64,000 bases of DNA. Source: a virus. Its lineage: Duplodnaviria > Caudoviricetes. This document shows positions 22,832-42,174 of this stretch, piece by piece; position 1 is the first letter of the stretch, and each line of letters starts with the position of its first letter. The notes beneath the pieces are model-generated. The model did not search any database and had not been told where the DNA came from. It saw only the letters and a list, made by a program, of their open reading frames with translations. The stretch is taken from IMG/VR virus record IMGVR_UViG_2974611114_000001, positions 40,330-104,329 of that record, one strand, 5' to 3'. The position numbers and the translations under genes are program-made.

Positions 22832-23677
22832 ATGTCTAAGGAAAAGCAATTCGCCCCTGTACCAGAGCAGGAAGATTTATATAGGGAGCTATCCAGAATT
22901 GTTGAGATATTTAAAGTATCTAAAGGCGAACTACGACCACATTTTATGTTATCTGGTGCATCAGGGTCAGGAAAATCATTTCTTATACAAGCACTGGCAT
23001 CCATAGCAAAAGTTGGTTTTCTTGAAATTAACGCAGCTCAGCTAACTAAAGAAGGCGTGTCTGGAAATAGCTTATCAAAGGCACTTAGTCCCCTTAGAGA
23101 GCGAGCTGGTAAACCTACAATAGTATTTGTTGATGAATTTGACAAACTGTTCATCTCTGGTAATACTAATAGTGAATTAGCCCATGAAAGTACTAATGGG
23201 GTTCAAAACGAGTTTCTAAAAATTCTAGAATCGGAAACTACTTCTGTATTTGGGGACTATGGCAAGTATGTAGAAGTTCCAACAAATAATGTTTTATATG
23301 TATTTGCAGGAGCATTCAATGGTGCCGAAAATCTGACGCTAGACAAGTTACGGGATATGGGAATTAAGACAGAGTTTCTAGGTCGTGTTGGGTTGATATA
23401 TAATACTACCAAAATATCGTTGTCTAGTATGTTAAACTTCTTAACAGAAAATACACTACTAGACAAATATTTGAGTATCTTTCCTGAAGTAGATAAGCAG
23501 GAAGTAATAGATACTTTAATCCCTATCGTTAAAGATCAGTATGAGGAAAATACTCTTGGTCTTAGAATGATAAACACCCTAATAACTAAATATTTTGTTA
23601 GTGAAGGTAAAATGACTCAGGGCAGTACTGATGAAGCCCCTGTATTACACCGAACACTTAAATTTGGAGCCAAATAA
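22832..23677 (+). CDS. ClpX/HslU-like AAA+ ATPase
   Basis: GASGSGKS, VFVDEFDKL, GVQNEFLKILE, FAGAF, EFLGRV, LGLR. Confidence 0.85.
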   Translation: MSKEKQFAPVPEQEDLYRELSRIVEIFKVSKGELRPHFMLSGASGSGKSFLIQALASIAKVGFLEINAAQLTKEGVSGNSLSKALSPLRERAGKPTIVFVDEFDKLFISGNTNSELAHESTNGVQNEFLKILESETTSVFGDYGKYVEVPTNNVLYVFAGAFNGAENLTLDKLRDMGIKTEFLGRVGLIYNTTKISLSSMLNFLTENTLLDKYLSIFPEVDKQEVIDTLIPIVKDQYEENTLGLRMINTLITKYFVSEGKMTQGSTDEAPVLHRTLKFGAK

Positions 23678-24099
23678 TGGAAGGTAATATGTTAGACTTT
23701 CTTCGGGCTGAAATTGCACAGGCACGATTAAAGAAAGATACTGAATGGGTCACAGTTGTATCTACTGCTGTATCTGAGCTACAGTATCAGTTTGGTGATT
23801 TTGTAACTAAAGATCAACTAATTAAATACGCAAAAGCTCAGATTAGCGCCCTAGAAAAGGCTAAATTAAAAGCTAAAGAGCGTAAAATTGATGCAGAGAT
23901 TAAAATGCCAGAACTTCAGCAAAAGTTATACGACATGATACTGCCACCACAGTTAACATACGATGATCTACTAGAAGTACTTGTTGACTCTACAGGTGAC
24001 ACGTTAGGAACGCATATGAAGTTCCTAAAAGAACACTATAATGGTCAGTATGATGGTAAGATCGCAAAACAAGCTATTCTGGACTTCATGAGCATCTAA
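23677..24099 (+). CDS. YqeY/GatB C-terminal-like protein
   Basis: LPPQLT...MKFLKEHYNGQYDGK; T5 synteny before the tRNA region. Confidence 0.8.
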   Translation: MEGNMLDFLRAEIAQARLKKDTEWVTVVSTAVSELQYQFGDFVTKDQLIKYAKAQISALEKAKLKAKERKIDAEIKMPELQQKLYDMILPPQLTYDDLLEVLVDSTGDTLGTHMKFLKEHYNGQYDGKIAKQAILDFMSI

Positions 24100-24149
24100 T
24101 TTAAAATTTTAGTTGCTAAATGCTAAAAACTTTGATATAATATTTATAT

Positions 24150-24890
24150 TAAATCGGAACACGGATTATTAATAATTCTAATAGTACGATTTCAGGGTAC
24201 AGCAGGCAGACTATGCTGGTAATATAAGTACATTGTGCTAATTACGAATAGAATCTGTGGGTTTCACTATCATAGTGTATAATTTGGCTCTTAACCACCC
24301 CGTAAACTCTACCCTTGCATTTTACTACGGTTTAATGCAGAAGAAAGTAAGTATCTTGGTACAAGAGGCGTAGACACAGGATCGCGGTGCAAATCCGTTA
24401 AGTTATCTGCATAAAAGAAGCAACGAAATCTACTCGTCTGGGTTCAACTCCCAGTAACAGATAATAAGGTACTAAGAGAAAACAACGAATAAGTATACTA
24501 GGTCGCGAACTACTATACTGAGTCCCTAATACTAAATTAGGAAATGTGGAGCTGATCACTTCCCATTTCGGGATATACTACCTCATGGGGCACCAATATT
24601 AATAGCGGAACCCATACGCTTCCTAGGCACGTAAGGGATAAGTCATGACACCCTGCCTATGATGGAATATTGGAGAAAGTGGTAGTGTAATCCCGAAATG
24701 GGTGTGTCGAACTCACTTATGTTGTAACCCTGTTAATATATGAGAGTGTTTACGGGAGTATATTAATAAGAACAAGATAACTGGGGCTTATATATTAAGC
24801 ATCGCTGGCACTACGAACAGTATCCAGGTCTGACCAGGAGACGCTGTTAATGAAGAAAGCCAAAACCCATTACTTAATTATCAGAGATAA
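24150..24890 (+). ncRNA. candidate ~740-nt highly structured non-coding RNA
   Basis: Promoter TTGCTA...TATAAT at 24113-24141, no ORF, several nested long-range helices and two T-loop-like hairpins. Confidence 0.65.
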
Positions 24891-24913: not shown

Positions 24914-25246
24914 ATGAATTGTCTAACAAATAGAGACGTTAGAGTAATACTAGAAACATTACCATTATACTTTAAAACAAGATTAGATAGCTCAGTGGAT
25001 TGTCATACTGAACTTGCAAAGGCTCTAGGGGAGTCCAGATTTGAAGCCAAAGCAAAGCTATATCAGTTCCTATACTCGTATAATGGAGTAGCCCAACTTT
25101 TATGGGTACGTAAACCTTACGTAGCGCTACATATTATGGCTACTGAATTATCCAATCTAAAAGGAACAACAATTAAAGAAGAGCTAGATCAGGCAGAAGT
25201 AAAGGCAGCTATAAAACTTAATATGCCAGAACGCTTCTGTCAGTAA
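24914..25246 (+). CDS. hypothetical protein
   Basis: 110-aa ORF with GGAG RBS. Confidence 0.7.
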   Translation: MNCLTNRDVRVILETLPLYFKTRLDSSVDCHTELAKALGESRFEAKAKLYQFLYSYNGVAQLLWVRKPYVALHIMATELSNLKGTTIKEELDQAEVKAAIKLNMPERFCQ

Positions 25247-25310: not shown

Positions 25311-25386
25311 GCGCCCTTAGCTCAGTGGATAGAGCAATAGCCTTCTAAGCTATGGGTCGTAGGTTCGAATCCTACAGGGCGTACCA
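25311..25386 (+). tRNA. tRNA-Arg(TCT)
   Basis: Cloverleaf, ATAGC-CTTCTAA-GCTAT, GTTCGAATCC, CCA end. Confidence 0.95.
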
Positions 25387-25469
25387 TAAAACTTTATAAT
25401 TTTACTTGCTAAATGCTTACAATTATAATATAATATTTATTATAAAGTTTAAGGAAAAGAATAAATAAA

Positions 25470-25705
25470 AATCTACTTTTGGAGATAGTAAAAGTCACTG
25501 CGAAGTTACGGGTGTTTACAAGAGCACTGCGGGAGAGCCTAATAGTAATAGGGCAACCAATTCCACACCAGCTATGGTTCTCTGTATCTTAGGGCAGAGG
25601 GAATTCCTAACCGAAAGGTAACTATTCAGGGGGCGATCAGGTAAACTATACTATCTTAGTAGCTGGTTACTACTACGGGCAACTTGTAAGTCGCAAAAGT
25701 AGATT
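25470..25705 (+). ncRNA. candidate ~235-nt structured RNA
   Basis: Closing stem AATCTACTTTTG/CAAAAGTAGATT, internal ACCAGCTA/TAGCTGGT, GAAA tetraloop hairpin; follows a promoter. Confidence 0.6.
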
Positions 25706-25721
25706 CTTTATTTATTTTTAT

Positions 25722-28129: not shown

Positions 28130-28208
28130 GGGGATTGGGAATGCTTGGGGTGTTCACCTCGCTTGCACCGAGGATATCAGGAGGGTTCGAATCCCTCAAT
28201 CTCCACCA
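28130..28208 (+). tRNA. tRNA-Ala(TGC)
   Basis: CCTCG-CTTGCAC-CGAGG, G3:U70 pair, CCA. Confidence 0.88.
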
Positions 28209-29572: not shown

Positions 29573-29664
29573 AGAAGAACAAACCTATTGGAGAGGGGAG
29601 CTACTTGGAAAGTAGCTGAGTGTCGAAAGACGCCTTGTGGGTTCGACTCCCACTTCTTCTGCCA
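29573..29664 (+). tRNA. tRNA-Ser(GGA)
   Basis: GCTAC-TTGGAAA-GTAGC, long variable arm, CCA. Confidence 0.88.
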
Positions 29665-30747: not shown

Positions 30748-31003
30748 TAAAGAAGAAGATCAAACGATCGCTAACCTTATTGATATGCGCATTCGTCAAC
30801 AGGTACAGAACGCGATTAAAGTGTCGGAACCGGAGCGTATTGGTGGTAAACTAGTAGTAACTATCTCAGTAGACGCAAAATTAGCAAGTAAGGTTTACGA
30901 AGCATTAAACGATTTAGTAGGTAAGCTAGAATACATTGAGATTGACTCTAGTTCAGATACTACATTATTTAAAGTAAGACCAGTAATCAATAAATTTATT
31001 TAA
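30740..31003 (+). CDS. hypothetical protein
   Basis: Start MYNK behind GGAG. Confidence 0.6.
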   Translation: MYNKEEDQTIANLIDMRIRQQVQNAIKVSEPERIGGKLVVTISVDAKLASKVYEALNDLVGKLEYIEIDSSSDTTLFKVRPVINKFI

Positions 31004-31073
31004 AATTTCACTTGCAAAACTCCTTAAAATCTAATATAATATATTTATAGTTTGAAGTTAGGGAGTTTTTCAA

Positions 31074-31595
31074 ATGAATGTTTTAGATGTCCTTAAAAGT
31101 AAAGGCGTTACAGATAGTCATAAAGTTTGGTTAGATCTAGAAGGAAATAAGGCAACTTTTCCACTGTTTGCAACAGATGGTAGATTGGTTGGATTTCAGC
31201 AGTATACACCAGATGCTCCTAAAAAGCATAAAGAGCCTAGTAAGGCAAGATATTTTACTTGGAGTTCTGAGCCAGCATTATGGGGTCTAGACACTGTAAA
31301 CCCTAATGACACTTTAGTGTTTGTAACGGAAGCAGTATTTAGAGCTACCGCACTACAAAGACTCGGCGTCAACGCCGTATCTGCTTTAGGCTCTAGTATG
31401 CACAAACCATTACTGAGATTATTAAATAATCACCAAACATATAAGTTTGTTTGGGTAGGTGATCCAGATAATGCAGGTGCTAAGTTATGTAAGAAGTTTA
31501 AGCACGGTGGTATGCAGTCTCCTAAAGACTTAGATGATATGTCAGACACTGAACTGCTTATGTTTAGTAAAGTATTACTAGATAATTATAGATAA
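31074..31595 (+). CDS. stand-alone TOPRIM primase-like protein
   Basis: FPLF...LVGFQQY, FVTEAVF, DPDNAG, KDLDD. Confidence 0.8.
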   Translation: MNVLDVLKSKGVTDSHKVWLDLEGNKATFPLFATDGRLVGFQQYTPDAPKKHKEPSKARYFTWSSEPALWGLDTVNPNDTLVFVTEAVFRATALQRLGVNAVSALGSSMHKPLLRLLNNHQTYKFVWVGDPDNAGAKLCKKFKHGGMQSPKDLDDMSDTELLMFSKVLLDNYR

Positions 31596-31604
31596 AAGAA
31601 TAAC

Positions 31605-31682
31605 GGGATGTTAGCTCAATTGGTCTAGAGCACTCGCCTTTTAAGCGATAGGTTCGGAGTTCGAGTCTCCGACATCCCACCA
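31605..31682 (+). tRNA. tRNA-Lys(TTT)
   Basis: TCGC-CTTTTAA-GCGA, CCA. Confidence 0.93.
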
Positions 31683-33476: not shown

Positions 33477-33551
33477 GGTACTATAGTATAACGGCAATTA
33501 TAACGGTCTGTCGCACCGAAGATCGGGGTTCGATTCCCCGTAGTACCGCCA
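33477..33551 (+). tRNA. tRNA-Asp(GTC)
   Basis: CGGT-CTGTCGC-ACCG, GCCA. Confidence 0.92.
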
Positions 33552-35299: not shown

Positions 35300-35374
35300 G
35301 CACCTTTAGCTGAGATGGATTAGCACTAGCCTGAAGAGCCTGGGAGGTTGGATCGTTACCAACAGGGTGCACCA
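35300..35374 (+). tRNA. tRNA-Phe(GAA), atypical
   Basis: GC-CTGAAGA-GC loop, mismatched anticodon stem, T loop ATCGTTA, CCA. Confidence 0.8.
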
Positions 35375-40320: not shown

Positions 40321-40383
40321 AGTTGACAAATACTACGATTTTTGATATAATATTTATATAAATTGATAAGAAAGGATTATTTT

Positions 40384-40578: not shown

Positions 40579-40932
40579 AAACTAAACTTATTGGTTGGTA
40601 CAATTCAATGAGCACAGATACTAAAGCTATGATCTGGTTTATTATAATCACATTACCAGTAATACTGGTCATAGGGGTGTTAGGTGCCTAACTCACTAGT
40701 ATTAGTAATATCAATGCTATTATCTGTAGCCCTAGGAATGGGTGTTAGTATAGCTATTCATGTTGGTCTTAGTATAGAAATATGCCTAGTATTACTGGTT
40801 ATATCAGGGCTATTAGGTATGAGCACCTATAGATTACACCAAATATGGTAAATGCGTTAAAAAATGTACTTGCCAACTTACTAAAATTTTAGTATAATAT
40901 ATGTATAAATTGCGAGATAGGAGATCAAAAGA

Positions 40933-41346
40933 ATGTCCAGTCGCTACTACGAGCAAATGTGTGAATTTTTACGCATTAGCCCGTCAGAACTAGATAATTA
41001 TTTAAAACACGAACCGGAAAAATTACAGAGTAAAATAGACCGCAAACTTAATAGAGGTACTAAAACAGTGGCAAGTAAGAAGAGAACCCGCAGAGATATC
41101 TCAAACTATATTAGTGAGCGTATTGGTGCAGATCTTACTATTGAAAAGCTACCATTACCTACACTAGAAGCTGTTGAGGATTGCGCTAAAGTAAAAGGAA
41201 AGTTTACCAAAGTTGAAGTGCCTACTGGTAGACTGAAACAACCATACATTGATGCACTTAAAACAATGTTTGGCAAAGATCTAGAGTTTAGTTCCATTAC
41301 TGTAAAGTCAATGACTGAACTGTTAACTGCATTTAATAACCTATGA
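40933..41346 (+). CDS. T5-conserved hypothetical protein
   Basis: PTGRLKQPY motif; promoter and GGAG RBS. Confidence 0.7.
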   Translation: MSSRYYEQMCEFLRISPSELDNYLKHEPEKLQSKIDRKLNRGTKTVASKKRTRRDISNYISERIGADLTIEKLPLPTLEAVEDCAKVKGKFTKVEVPTGRLKQPYIDALKTMFGKDLEFSSITVKSMTELLTAFNNL

Positions 41347-41361
41347 AGCAGGAGAGGCTCT

Positions 41362-42174
41362 ATGCAACAAATTAATACTAGGAACTTTATAGGTATCAAA
41401 CACAATGATACTCTTAATGTACCTACAGATGCAAAATTATTCTTCGTTGGGGATATCCATGGTCATTATGATCACTTAATGAAAGCGTTGCATAAAGCAG
41501 ATTTTGACTTTGATAAAGATTTCCTAGTCTCAGTAGGAGATCTTATTGACCGAGGTCCGAATAGTGCTAGAGTTGTGATGCTCATCGGAGAGAGGTGGTT
41601 TCATCCAGTAATGGGTAATCATGACTTCTTCCCAGTTGTGGATGACTATGTAAATTGGATGGGTAATGGTGGTACCTGGGCTTTAGATTATCCAGACCCA
41701 GATAGCAATGGGCTTGATCCTATACTTTTAAGGAAACTAACTAGCCTACCCCTAACTAAAACTGTTACATATGGAGACCTAAGATTTGGGGTAAGCCATG
41801 CAGGTATCCCTAAGTTTTTTAAATTCTGGAGAGACTACGCTACCCAGGACTACATTGACTTGCCAACAGACTGGGATGGTATTGTTCAAATGCTTACAGA
41901 AGCCGTTAATGATCCTTTGTTGCATAGGGAATTAGTAATGACTATGTTATGGGATCGCACAGTACGTAGAGACTCTGATAGGGGACTTACATTCCCAAGT
42001 ATTACAGGTGTAGACTACACTATTCATGGGCACACCTATTCCAAAGATAGACTAAATATAGGTAATAGAGTATATTTAGATACTGGTTGTGGGTGGAAAG
42101 ATGGCAACTTAACTGTAACTAGAGCTAACGCGGATGGTACATTTACTGATTTCTTAGTACCTACTAAGGAGTAA
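41362..42174 (+). CDS. Ser/Thr protein phosphatase (NinI-like metallophosphoesterase)
   Basis: GDIHG, GDLIDRG, GNHD, HAG, HGHT, LDTG. Confidence 0.92.
   Translation: MQQINTRNFIGIKHNDTLNVPTDAKLFFVGDIHGHYDHLMKALHKADFDFDKDFLVSVGDLIDRGPNSARVVMLIGERWFHPVMGNHDFFPVVDDYVNWMGNGGTWALDYPDPDSNGLDPILLRKLTSLPLTKTVTYGDLRFGVSHAGIPKFFKFWRDYATQDYIDLPTDWDGIVQMLTEAVNDPLLHRELVMTMLWDRTVRRDSDRGLTFPSITGVDYTIHGHTYSKDRLNIGNRVYLDTGCGWKDGNLTVTRANADGTFTDFLVPTKE

Follow-up and report, generated by a model that had tools for sequence, protein, structure and literature searches.

We found that about 725 nucleotides (nt) lying ahead of the tRNA genes of a T5-like Proteus phage are very probably the Novosibvirus ortholog of RNAX of bacteriophage T5, a large stable non-coding RNA. 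The window that we analysed is a stretch of 64,000 nt (positions 40,330 to 104,329) of the 104,329-base-pair (bp) virus record IMGVR_UViG_2974611114_000001, which comes from a T5-like Proteus phage (Demerecviridae, Novosibvirus). An initial annotation, made from the sequence alone, had proposed a large structured RNA at positions 24150-24890, GOLLD- or ROOL-like and possibly of a new class. Covariation in two independent alignments bears out a large structured non-coding RNA beside the tRNA genes, but the suggestion of a new class does not stand, as the element corresponds to RNAX, already known in T5. What is newly added is the Proteus form, and there is no Rfam 15 family for the element. The element and its flanks are as follows:

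24113-24141, plus strand: early sigma-70 promoter (TTGCTA, 17-nt spacer, upstream TG, TATAAT; score 10/12), the counterpart of T5 promoter P16-17
24148-24872, plus strand: RNAX ortholog, about 725 nt, with the 5' end inferred from the -10 box and the conserved sequence ending at AAACCCATTA
25311-25386, plus strand: tRNA-Arg(UCU), the conserved partner 3' of RNAX in each genus examined

We base this assignment on the slot, which is annotated rnaX in T5 and DT57C, and on the match of a Proteus/Providencia sequence profile to T5 RNAX. The T5 genome record (AY543070) has listed rnaX since 2004, as a misc_RNA of 719 nt (40848-41566) with the note 'RNAX, stable RNA with unknown functions', and DT57C (NC_027356) carries a 636-nt feature with the same label (30992-31627). 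T5 RNAX spans from promoter P16-17 to the base preceding tRNA-Arg. Gene order is the same in T5 and in the window: a YqeY-like open reading frame (ORF) of phrog_1460 (T5.081 in T5), the promoter, the RNA and tRNA-Arg(UCU), all on the same strand. Besides this slot, strand, homologous early promoter and position upstream of tRNA-Arg(UCU), the window element shares with the T5 and DT57C copies the blocks GGGGTGTCGAA, CTTATGT..AAC, AAGA....GATAACTG and [AT]AAACC, a set of covarying helices (P5, P6, P7 and a closing helix) and a single tRNA-like T-arm per copy. The Proteus/Providencia nhmmer profile matched RNAX of T5 (E = 1.5e-7) and DT57C (6e-7) and the corresponding locus of saus176N (E = 5.6e-11), and additionally KEY, bastian, Spc35 and Sugarland. 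A profile of the whole family matched window positions 24693-24872 (E = 2.4e-31), and a covariance model of the core (R1) matched 24697-24808 with 84 bits. The strong promoter that had been read from the sequence was confirmed. More than 500 T5-like genomes match the first 78 nt of the query, and the promoter is conserved in them. A literature search on RNAX, rnaX and T5 stable RNA returned no paper describing structure or function; its one lead was PMC8084836, which cites Ksenzenko et al. 1982 (pmid 6285979).

The region does not encode a protein. As had been noted at the outset, 24150-24890 is free of substantial ORFs, the longest being 38 amino acids on the plus strand and 53 on the minus strand. 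Substitutions were spread over the three codon positions without periodicity (36/40/30 and 44/42/34), and the small ORFs called by annotators in different relatives do not coincide in position; we therefore consider the region non-coding and ruled out a protein-coding reading of 24148-24872. The promoter and the tRNA genes lie on the plus strand, as does the RNA annotated in T5. Moreover, 19 G-U cells in the core helices would become A-C mismatches if read on the other strand, which, together with the promoter and the orientation of the tRNA genes, places the RNA on the plus strand.

The initial annotation had suggested covariation across relatives as one way to examine the RNA. We used two alignments. 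The first (A2) holds six sequences from Proteus and Providencia phages, in just two deep groups, and consists of blocks of 88-96% identity alternating with variable, indel-rich segments. RNAalifold predicted 144 pairs on this alignment, with 93.8% of cells forming standard pairs; 25 pairs were changed on both sides, compared with 12.6 +/- 2.4 after shuffling (reached in 0 of 500 shuffles) and at most 6 when partners were slid by 1-3 columns. The helices supported in this way are two 5' hairpins, a stem around TAG-GTCGCGAA-CTA, a CCTAAT/ATTAGG hairpin, the distal part of a long hairpin, and P5. Helices 3 and 8 of the prediction, which would enclose the entire RNA, are at chance level and do not hold in the Providencia phages, and were rejected. 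The second alignment (A3) comprises 12 sequences (T5, DT57C, Spc35, saus176N, bastian, Sugarland, My1, KEY, PSTCR5, PR1, Stubb and the window). Here 17 pairs were compensated, compared with 7.3 +/- 1.6 after shuffling (a count attained in none of 500 shuffles) and at most 4 when partners were displaced by 1-3 columns, and 93% of cells pair. The shared core covaries across seven genera. These data support the view that 24148-24872 is a real, elaborately folded large non-coding RNA.

The same comparisons bear on the idea that the region is a non-functional spacer, a remnant of tRNA gene decay and past recombination in a plastic tRNA region. Such a spacer could contain the T-arm fragments, the swapped segment of phage PL1 and the inserted ORFs that we describe below, and the overall identity to the copy of Providencia phage PSTCR5 (62.8%) is similar to the value for the neighbouring gene (59.9%). 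We conclude from the similarity of these two values that selection acts on blocks and pairing and not on the whole sequence. Blocks of 88-96% identity amid variable segments, compensatory changes far above the shuffled and slid controls, and retention of the element in about 540 genomes of seven genera all speak against a spacer, which we disfavour as highly improbable.

The part of RNAX that is common to the family lies at the 3' end of the window element and comprises the following features, listed together with the long hairpin that precedes them:

24562-24702, plus strand: long hairpin with a perfect 13-bp base that extends to about 22 bp, followed by CCAATATT/AATATTGG and TAGGCA/TGCCTA (A2 helices 17-21)
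24697-24703, plus strand: 5' strand of the closing helix, AATGGGT, which pairs with ACCCATT at 24865-24871
24712-24785, plus strand: helix P5 (24712-24725 with 24772-24785), CTCA-C-TTAT-G-TTGT with ACAA-G-ATAA-C-TGGG
24726-24771, plus strand: tip of P5, a plain AU-rich hairpin in the window
24786-24800, plus strand: hairpin P6, GCTTA-TATAT-TAAGC
24801-24872, plus strand: junction ATCGC, P7 (TGGC with GCCA), an optional hairpin at 24816-24848, then GAAGAAAGCCAAAACCCATTA

P5 is paired in 99.3% of cells of the 12-sequence alignment, with 7 of its 12 pairs compensated. Its C/C and G/G mismatches are invariant, as is its internal loop, in which AAC(A/C)CU faces AAGA. P6 is paired in all cells, with three of its five pairs compensated. 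P7, just 5' of [AU]AAACC, changes in step between genera (GGC/GCC, GCUG/CAGC, GCUA/UAGC, GGCAGU/ACUGCC and GGCA/UGCC), and the optional hairpin next to it is absent in Stubb, PL1 and VTCCBPA139. The closing helix is AUGGG/CCCAU in the window, GUGG/CCAC in all T5-likes and UACGG/CCGUA in My1, which amounts to three different Watson-Crick combinations at two adjacent positions. Because the closing helix and P7 change in step beside P5 and P6, the core is most likely a four-way junction of these four helices, joined by the conserved linkers GUGUCGAA, AUCGC and AAA; this model is provisional and draws on three to five lineages. A pairing of the junction sequence GUCGAA with T-loops was considered by eye, but is not conserved.

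The long hairpin had been noticed in the initial annotation as nested complementarity, and its three pairings (24562-24574 with 24690-24702, 24593-24600 with 24666-24673 and 24624-24629 with 24654-24659; 13, 8 and 6 bp) are present as described. Of 300 mononucleotide shuffles, only 4 produced a perfect inverted repeat of 13 bp. The hairpin covaries in its distal part, and its tip is 21 nt shorter in the Providencia phages. The other two of the five proposed pairings did not survive comparison. For CCCGTAAAC at 24299 with GTTTACGGG at 24748, chance would yield about 1.4 perfect 9-bp pairs in a sequence of this kind, the 3' arm falls in a hairpin tip that varies, and the Providencia phages do not have the pairing. 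For TGGGTTT at 24258 with AAACCCA at 24863, chance would yield about 20 perfect 7-bp pairs, the two strands do not match in the Providencia phages, and AAACCCA pairs instead with 24697-24703. Given these chance expectations, neither long-range pair is remarkable by itself. The base of the 13-bp stem overlaps the closing helix in the shared AUGGG at 24698-24702, which makes the two pairings alternatives. It is possible that their competition could serve as a conformational switch in this lineage. A further helix, TGATCAC (24553-24559) with GTGTCG (24704-24709), never varies and is therefore neither supported nor rejected by covariation.

Upstream of the core, the window element carries a tRNA-like module:

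24403-24464, plus strand: tRNA-like minihelix of 62 nt, with an acceptor-like stem (TTATCTG/CAGATAA) and a T-arm (CTGGG-TTCAACT-CCCAG, 24438-24454)
24384-24398, plus strand: T-loop-like hairpin, GCGG-TGCAAAT-CCGT

The initial annotation had pointed to two T-loop-like hairpins. The one at 24438-24454 is upheld, since its stem covaries (CTGGG/CCCAG changes to CTAGG/CCTAG in VTCCBPA139) and every homolog has one such T-arm, whereas the one at 24384-24398 is confined to the Proteus lineage, being deleted in PL1 and absent in the Providencia phages. PL1 and the Providencia phages have a different minihelix sequence with the same design. Neither ARAGORN nor the Rfam tRNA model (RF00005) called 24403-24464 as a tRNA; it consists of just the acceptor-like stem and the T-arm. 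Exactly one canonical T-arm, closed by a G-C pair and bearing a UUCRANU loop, occurs in each RNAX examined. In the T5-likes, My1, KEY and Sugarland, this T-arm sits within a tRNA-like insert at the tip of P5. With the Rfam tRNA model, the insert reaches 29.3 bits in saus176N and 38.3 bits in My1; the T5 record labels it a pseudo-tRNA, and other records label it tRNA-OTHER, Sec, Pro or Leu. The insert is common to most RNAX members, though it belongs to no published definition of the family, and is absent from the window. The tRNA-like part of the RNAX covariance model aligned best with the window tRNA-Asp (33478-33546; 22.4 bits), with which it shares a UAGUAUAA..GG D-arm and a GAAGAU variable region. 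This suggests that the embedded module may derive from a tRNA-Asp gene. In PL1, the segment at about 595-715 of its locus (about 24355-24475 of the window) is swapped for a Providencia-like one with a GGTTCGATTCC T-arm followed by GGAGCA, which points to modular recombination inside the RNA gene.

The copies of T5-like phages differ from the window element in several ways. They carry the tRNA-like insert at the tip of P5, whereas the window has a plain tip and places its minihelix upstream. They possess a 3' domain of about 400 nt that is lacking in the window, which in turn has about 390 extra nt (24311-24696), including the long hairpin of 140 nt. RNAX of T5 and DT57C is also without the 5' hairpin domain of the window element.

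An alternative is that the locus is composite, in that RNase P and 3' nucleases cut at the minihelix (24403-24464) to leave two or three RNAs: a 5' RNA of about 255 nt, a tRNA-like piece of 60 nt and a 3' RNA of about 400 nt. RNase P accepts minihelices of this kind, and MALAT1/mascRNA arises by such processing. The design of acceptor stem plus T-arm is kept even in PL1 and the Providencia phages, where another sequence has taken its place, and the 5' domain and the core are independently dispensable, T5 and DT57C being without the 5' domain. On the other hand, T5 annotates a single 719-nt RNA despite the pseudo-tRNA inside it, and in the T5-likes the tRNA-like part is clamped by P5, which should hinder RNase P. 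In the window, a 3-nt spacer separates the T-stem from the 3' strand of the acceptor, no CCA follows, and the Rfam tRNA model gives no score there. We regard a composite locus as possible but doubtful.

To describe the distribution of RNAX, we combined several searches. Blastn with the region returned Proteus T5-like phages, the Providencia phages PSTCR5 and PR1 (Priunavirus) at about 72% identity, and nothing else. Over the queried region, the window is 99.6% identical to Proteus phage RP7 and 96-99% identical to the Proteus phages Stubb, VTCCBPA139, PL1, phage 1 and phage 2. PSTCR5 and PR1 have an unannotated gap of the same size in the same place. The T5-like phage saus176N has a 0.9-kb unannotated gap that follows its phrog_1460 ortholog, has its own promoter and extends up to tRNA-Arg(UCU); Pectobacterium phage My1 has a similar gap, and both share motifs with the window. 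With the saus176N gap as query, blastn matched 530 records. RNAX is found in about 540 phage genomes of seven genera, the carriers being sequenced T5-like phages of Escherichia, Salmonella, Klebsiella, Pectobacterium, Erwinia, Proteus and Providencia. A scan of IMG/VR for the core motif found 31 T5-like genomes and no other viruses, two further matches being chance matches in a coding region, and an exact-motif scan of metagenome contigs gave one match, by chance, inside a GC-rich bacterial gene. Among 60 IMG/VR loci that share the neighbouring AAA-ATPase, nhmmer detected no RNAX, and the core covariance model, run on the whole records of 35 of these contigs and on the whole Vibrio T5-like phage VPG01, found ordinary tRNAs only.

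Several observations weigh against a simple reading of the window element as one structured RNA orthologous to RNAX. The folding energy gives a weak signal on either strand (minimum free energy z-score -2.0 on the plus strand and -1.8 on the minus strand), so the case for a structured RNA comes from covariation. The effective diversity behind that covariation is low, with three lineages for the closing helix and two deep groups in the Proteus/Providencia alignment. The closing helix not only competes with the base of the 13-bp stem but would also cross the invariant TGATCAC/GTGTCG pairing, which makes the exact fold in the window ambiguous. The tRNA-like module is placed differently in Proteus and Providencia phages from its place in the T5-likes, and the window has no counterpart of their 3' domain of about 400 nt; a picture of one RNA with one function may therefore be too simple. 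The status of RNAX as a 'stable RNA' derives solely from the GenBank notes for T5 and DT57C. Finally, the YqeY-like gene is not adjacent to RNAX in Sugarland, and it is present in VPG01, where the RNAX model matched nothing but ordinary tRNAs.

We compared RNAX with known large RNAs. GOLLD is a large RNA of phages and prophages, often located beside tRNA islands, that has a conserved and a variable part and sometimes tRNAs in its linker; ROOL, which also occurs in phages and prophages, is a large ornate RNA in the vicinity of tRNA islands (10.1101/2024.12.08.627333). That the window element belongs to one of these families, as a divergent member, would fit its size, its phage origin and its place beside tRNA genes, and the tRNA in the variable region of T5-like copies parallels the tRNAs in the GOLLD linker (10.1101/2024.12.08.627333). 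However, among the 4,227 models of Rfam 15, nothing but tRNA was found in the window region, at gathering score or at E <= 10, and nothing but tRNA at E <= 1 in the T5-like and My1 loci. The Rfam comparison that the initial annotation had proposed therefore came out without a match for any of its candidates (GOLLD, ROOL, OLE, group I/II introns, tmRNA and RNase P). Group I/II introns, RNase P RNA, OLE, 6S and tmRNA were rejected on these grounds, ARAGORN making no tmRNA call. RNAX resembles GOLLD (RF01998) in size, phage setting, tRNA adjacency and embedded tRNA, and ROOL (RF03087) in size, phage origin and association with tRNA islands, but the covariance model of neither family matched it. 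It differs from GOLLD also in its hosts, and the analysis gave no sign of multimeric cages for RNAX. The likeness to GOLLD and ROOL that had been proposed thus holds for size, phage setting and tRNA adjacency and fails for membership, which we consider very improbable. By analogy, RNAX parallels GOLLD and ROOL in kind, not in family. It is also analogous to MALAT1/mascRNA and to the bacterial Y-RNA-like YrlA, in which a tRNA-shaped module lies within or abuts a longer non-coding RNA. YrlA (RF02553) had no match in the window, the T5-like loci or the My1 locus.

What RNAX does is constrained by its strong early promoter, its presence in about 540 genomes, its constant linkage to tRNA-Arg(UCU), its one movable T-arm and its small invariant junction core with a freely varying periphery. 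The window element is transcribed rightward from the conserved strong early sigma-70 promoter and consists of three parts, namely the 5' hairpin domain, the tRNA-like minihelix and the core common to enterobacterial T5-like phages. In the core, the closing helix (24697-24703 with 24865-24871), P5, P6 and P7 most likely radiate from one junction with strongly conserved linkers. T5 RNAX is annotated up to the base that precedes tRNA-Arg, an arrangement suggestive of release by RNase P. In T5, DT57C and Stubb, where the RNA abuts tRNA-Arg, a cut by RNase P at the 5' end of the tRNA would free the 3' end of RNAX. In the window, a 110-amino-acid ORF is inserted after 24872, so the 3' end would have to form differently, or else the RNA would remain fused to the mRNA of this ORF. 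We tentatively propose that RNAX acts in trans as an RNA scaffold, with one tRNA-shaped module on a rigid conserved junction, that engages host or phage machinery handling tRNAs. A further and rather unlikely proposition is that RNAX, including its Proteus and Providencia form, is a third giant phage RNA family of the GOLLD and ROOL kind, an RNA-only or RNA-centred machine with a tRNA-shaped module on a four-way junction, acting on the tRNA or translation machinery or on tRNA-directed host defences.

Instead of acting in trans, the element might be a cis-acting leader for tRNA-Arg and the tRNA operon, serving processive antitermination or as a processing platform. It lies directly 3' of a promoter, tRNA-Arg(UCU) is always downstream, and no terminator-like site was found between the promoter at 24113-24141 and the tRNA genes. 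The family-wide block AAACTCTT presumably has a loose resemblance to boxA (GCUCUUUA). Nevertheless, about 700 nt and a covarying multi-helix junction go far beyond the needs of known antitermination leaders. The operon in T5 is short, consisting of RNAX, tRNA-Arg, one gene and a terminator; the GenBank label says stable RNA; and in several phages ORFs are inserted between the RNA and the tRNA. We therefore think a cis-acting leader unlikely and retain the trans-acting scaffold as our working proposal.

The 5' domain and the middle of the window element contain the following features:

24151-24264, plus strand: 5' domain (A2 helices 1, 4 and 5; four of the five pairs of helix 5 are compensated)
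24151-24156 with 24187-24192, plus strand: 5' domain stem AAATCG/CGATTT
24200-24218, plus strand: 5' domain hairpin CAGCA...TGCTG
24219-24245, plus strand: 5' domain hairpin GTAAT...ATTAC
24246-24264, plus strand: 5' domain block GAATAGAATCTGTGGGTTT
24301-24325, plus strand: family-wide block CGTAAACTCT, which could form a hairpin GTAAA...TTTAC, a pairing judged by eye
24478-24541, plus strand: conserved block GAAAACAACGAATA, stem and hairpin specific to Novosibvirus and Priunavirus (A2 helices 14 and 15, two compensated pairs each)
24492-24519, plus strand: stem enclosing TAG-GTCGCGAA-CTA
24525-24541, plus strand: hairpin CCTAAT-ACTAA-ATTAGG, which changes to CCAAGT/ACTTGG

The 5' domain was matched by nhmmer in My1, KEY, Spc35 and Sugarland, which contain the same 5'-domain hairpin and block.

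The genes on either side of RNAX vary in their constancy. The ORF just upstream (23677-24099) matches phrog_1460 ('tRNA amidotransferase', YqeY-like; E = 2.6e-32), and it is conserved in 477 phage records. Its orthologs fall below the threshold of Pfam YqeY (24-25 bits against a cut-off of 27), and the window protein has no Pfam match at all. We considered a functional link between RNAX and the YqeY-like protein, but these sub-threshold matches and the non-universal adjacency weigh it down. On the 3' side, the ORF of 110 amino acids (24914-25246) lies between the RNAX end and the segment preceding tRNA-Arg and matches nothing in Pfam or PHROG. Besides the window, RP7 carries this ORF, whereas the otherwise 96-99% identical phages Stubb, PL1, VTCCBPA139, phage 1 and phage 2 are without it, so that it appears to have been inserted recently. 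The RNAX end is separated from tRNA-Arg by about 70-90 nt in Stubb, PL1 and VTCCBPA139; the Providencia phages and KEY have different ORFs inserted at this place.

ARAGORN identified 22 tRNA genes in the window, the first at 25311 and all on the plus strand. Two of its calls, tRNA-Ala (28130-28208) and tRNA-Ser(GGA) (29576-29664), are missing from the Rfam list at gathering score, and positions 35300-35371 score 38.3 bits with the Rfam tRNA model but have no ARAGORN call. Strong promoter-like sites (TTGCTA-17-TATAAT) lie just 3' of tRNA-Arg, at 25401-25434, and are followed, within 25387-25721, by about 290 nt without a convincing ORF ahead of tRNA-Tyr. In Escherichia phage EscoHU1, locus positions 2501-2940 hold a second copy of the same early promoter and then about 370 nt without an annotated gene, upstream of the gene for a 'replication origin binding protein'. 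This gap may be another T5-like non-coding leader or RNA.

RNAX occurs in about 540 T5-like phages and yet is without an Rfam family. The Proteus variant helps to define its essentials, as what it retains is a junction core of about 175 nt and a single T-arm, the latter at a new place, while peripheral domains have been swapped. Unlike GOLLD and ROOL, RNAX resides in T5, a classic E. coli phage with easy genetics, so that the role of giant phage RNAs should be directly testable there.

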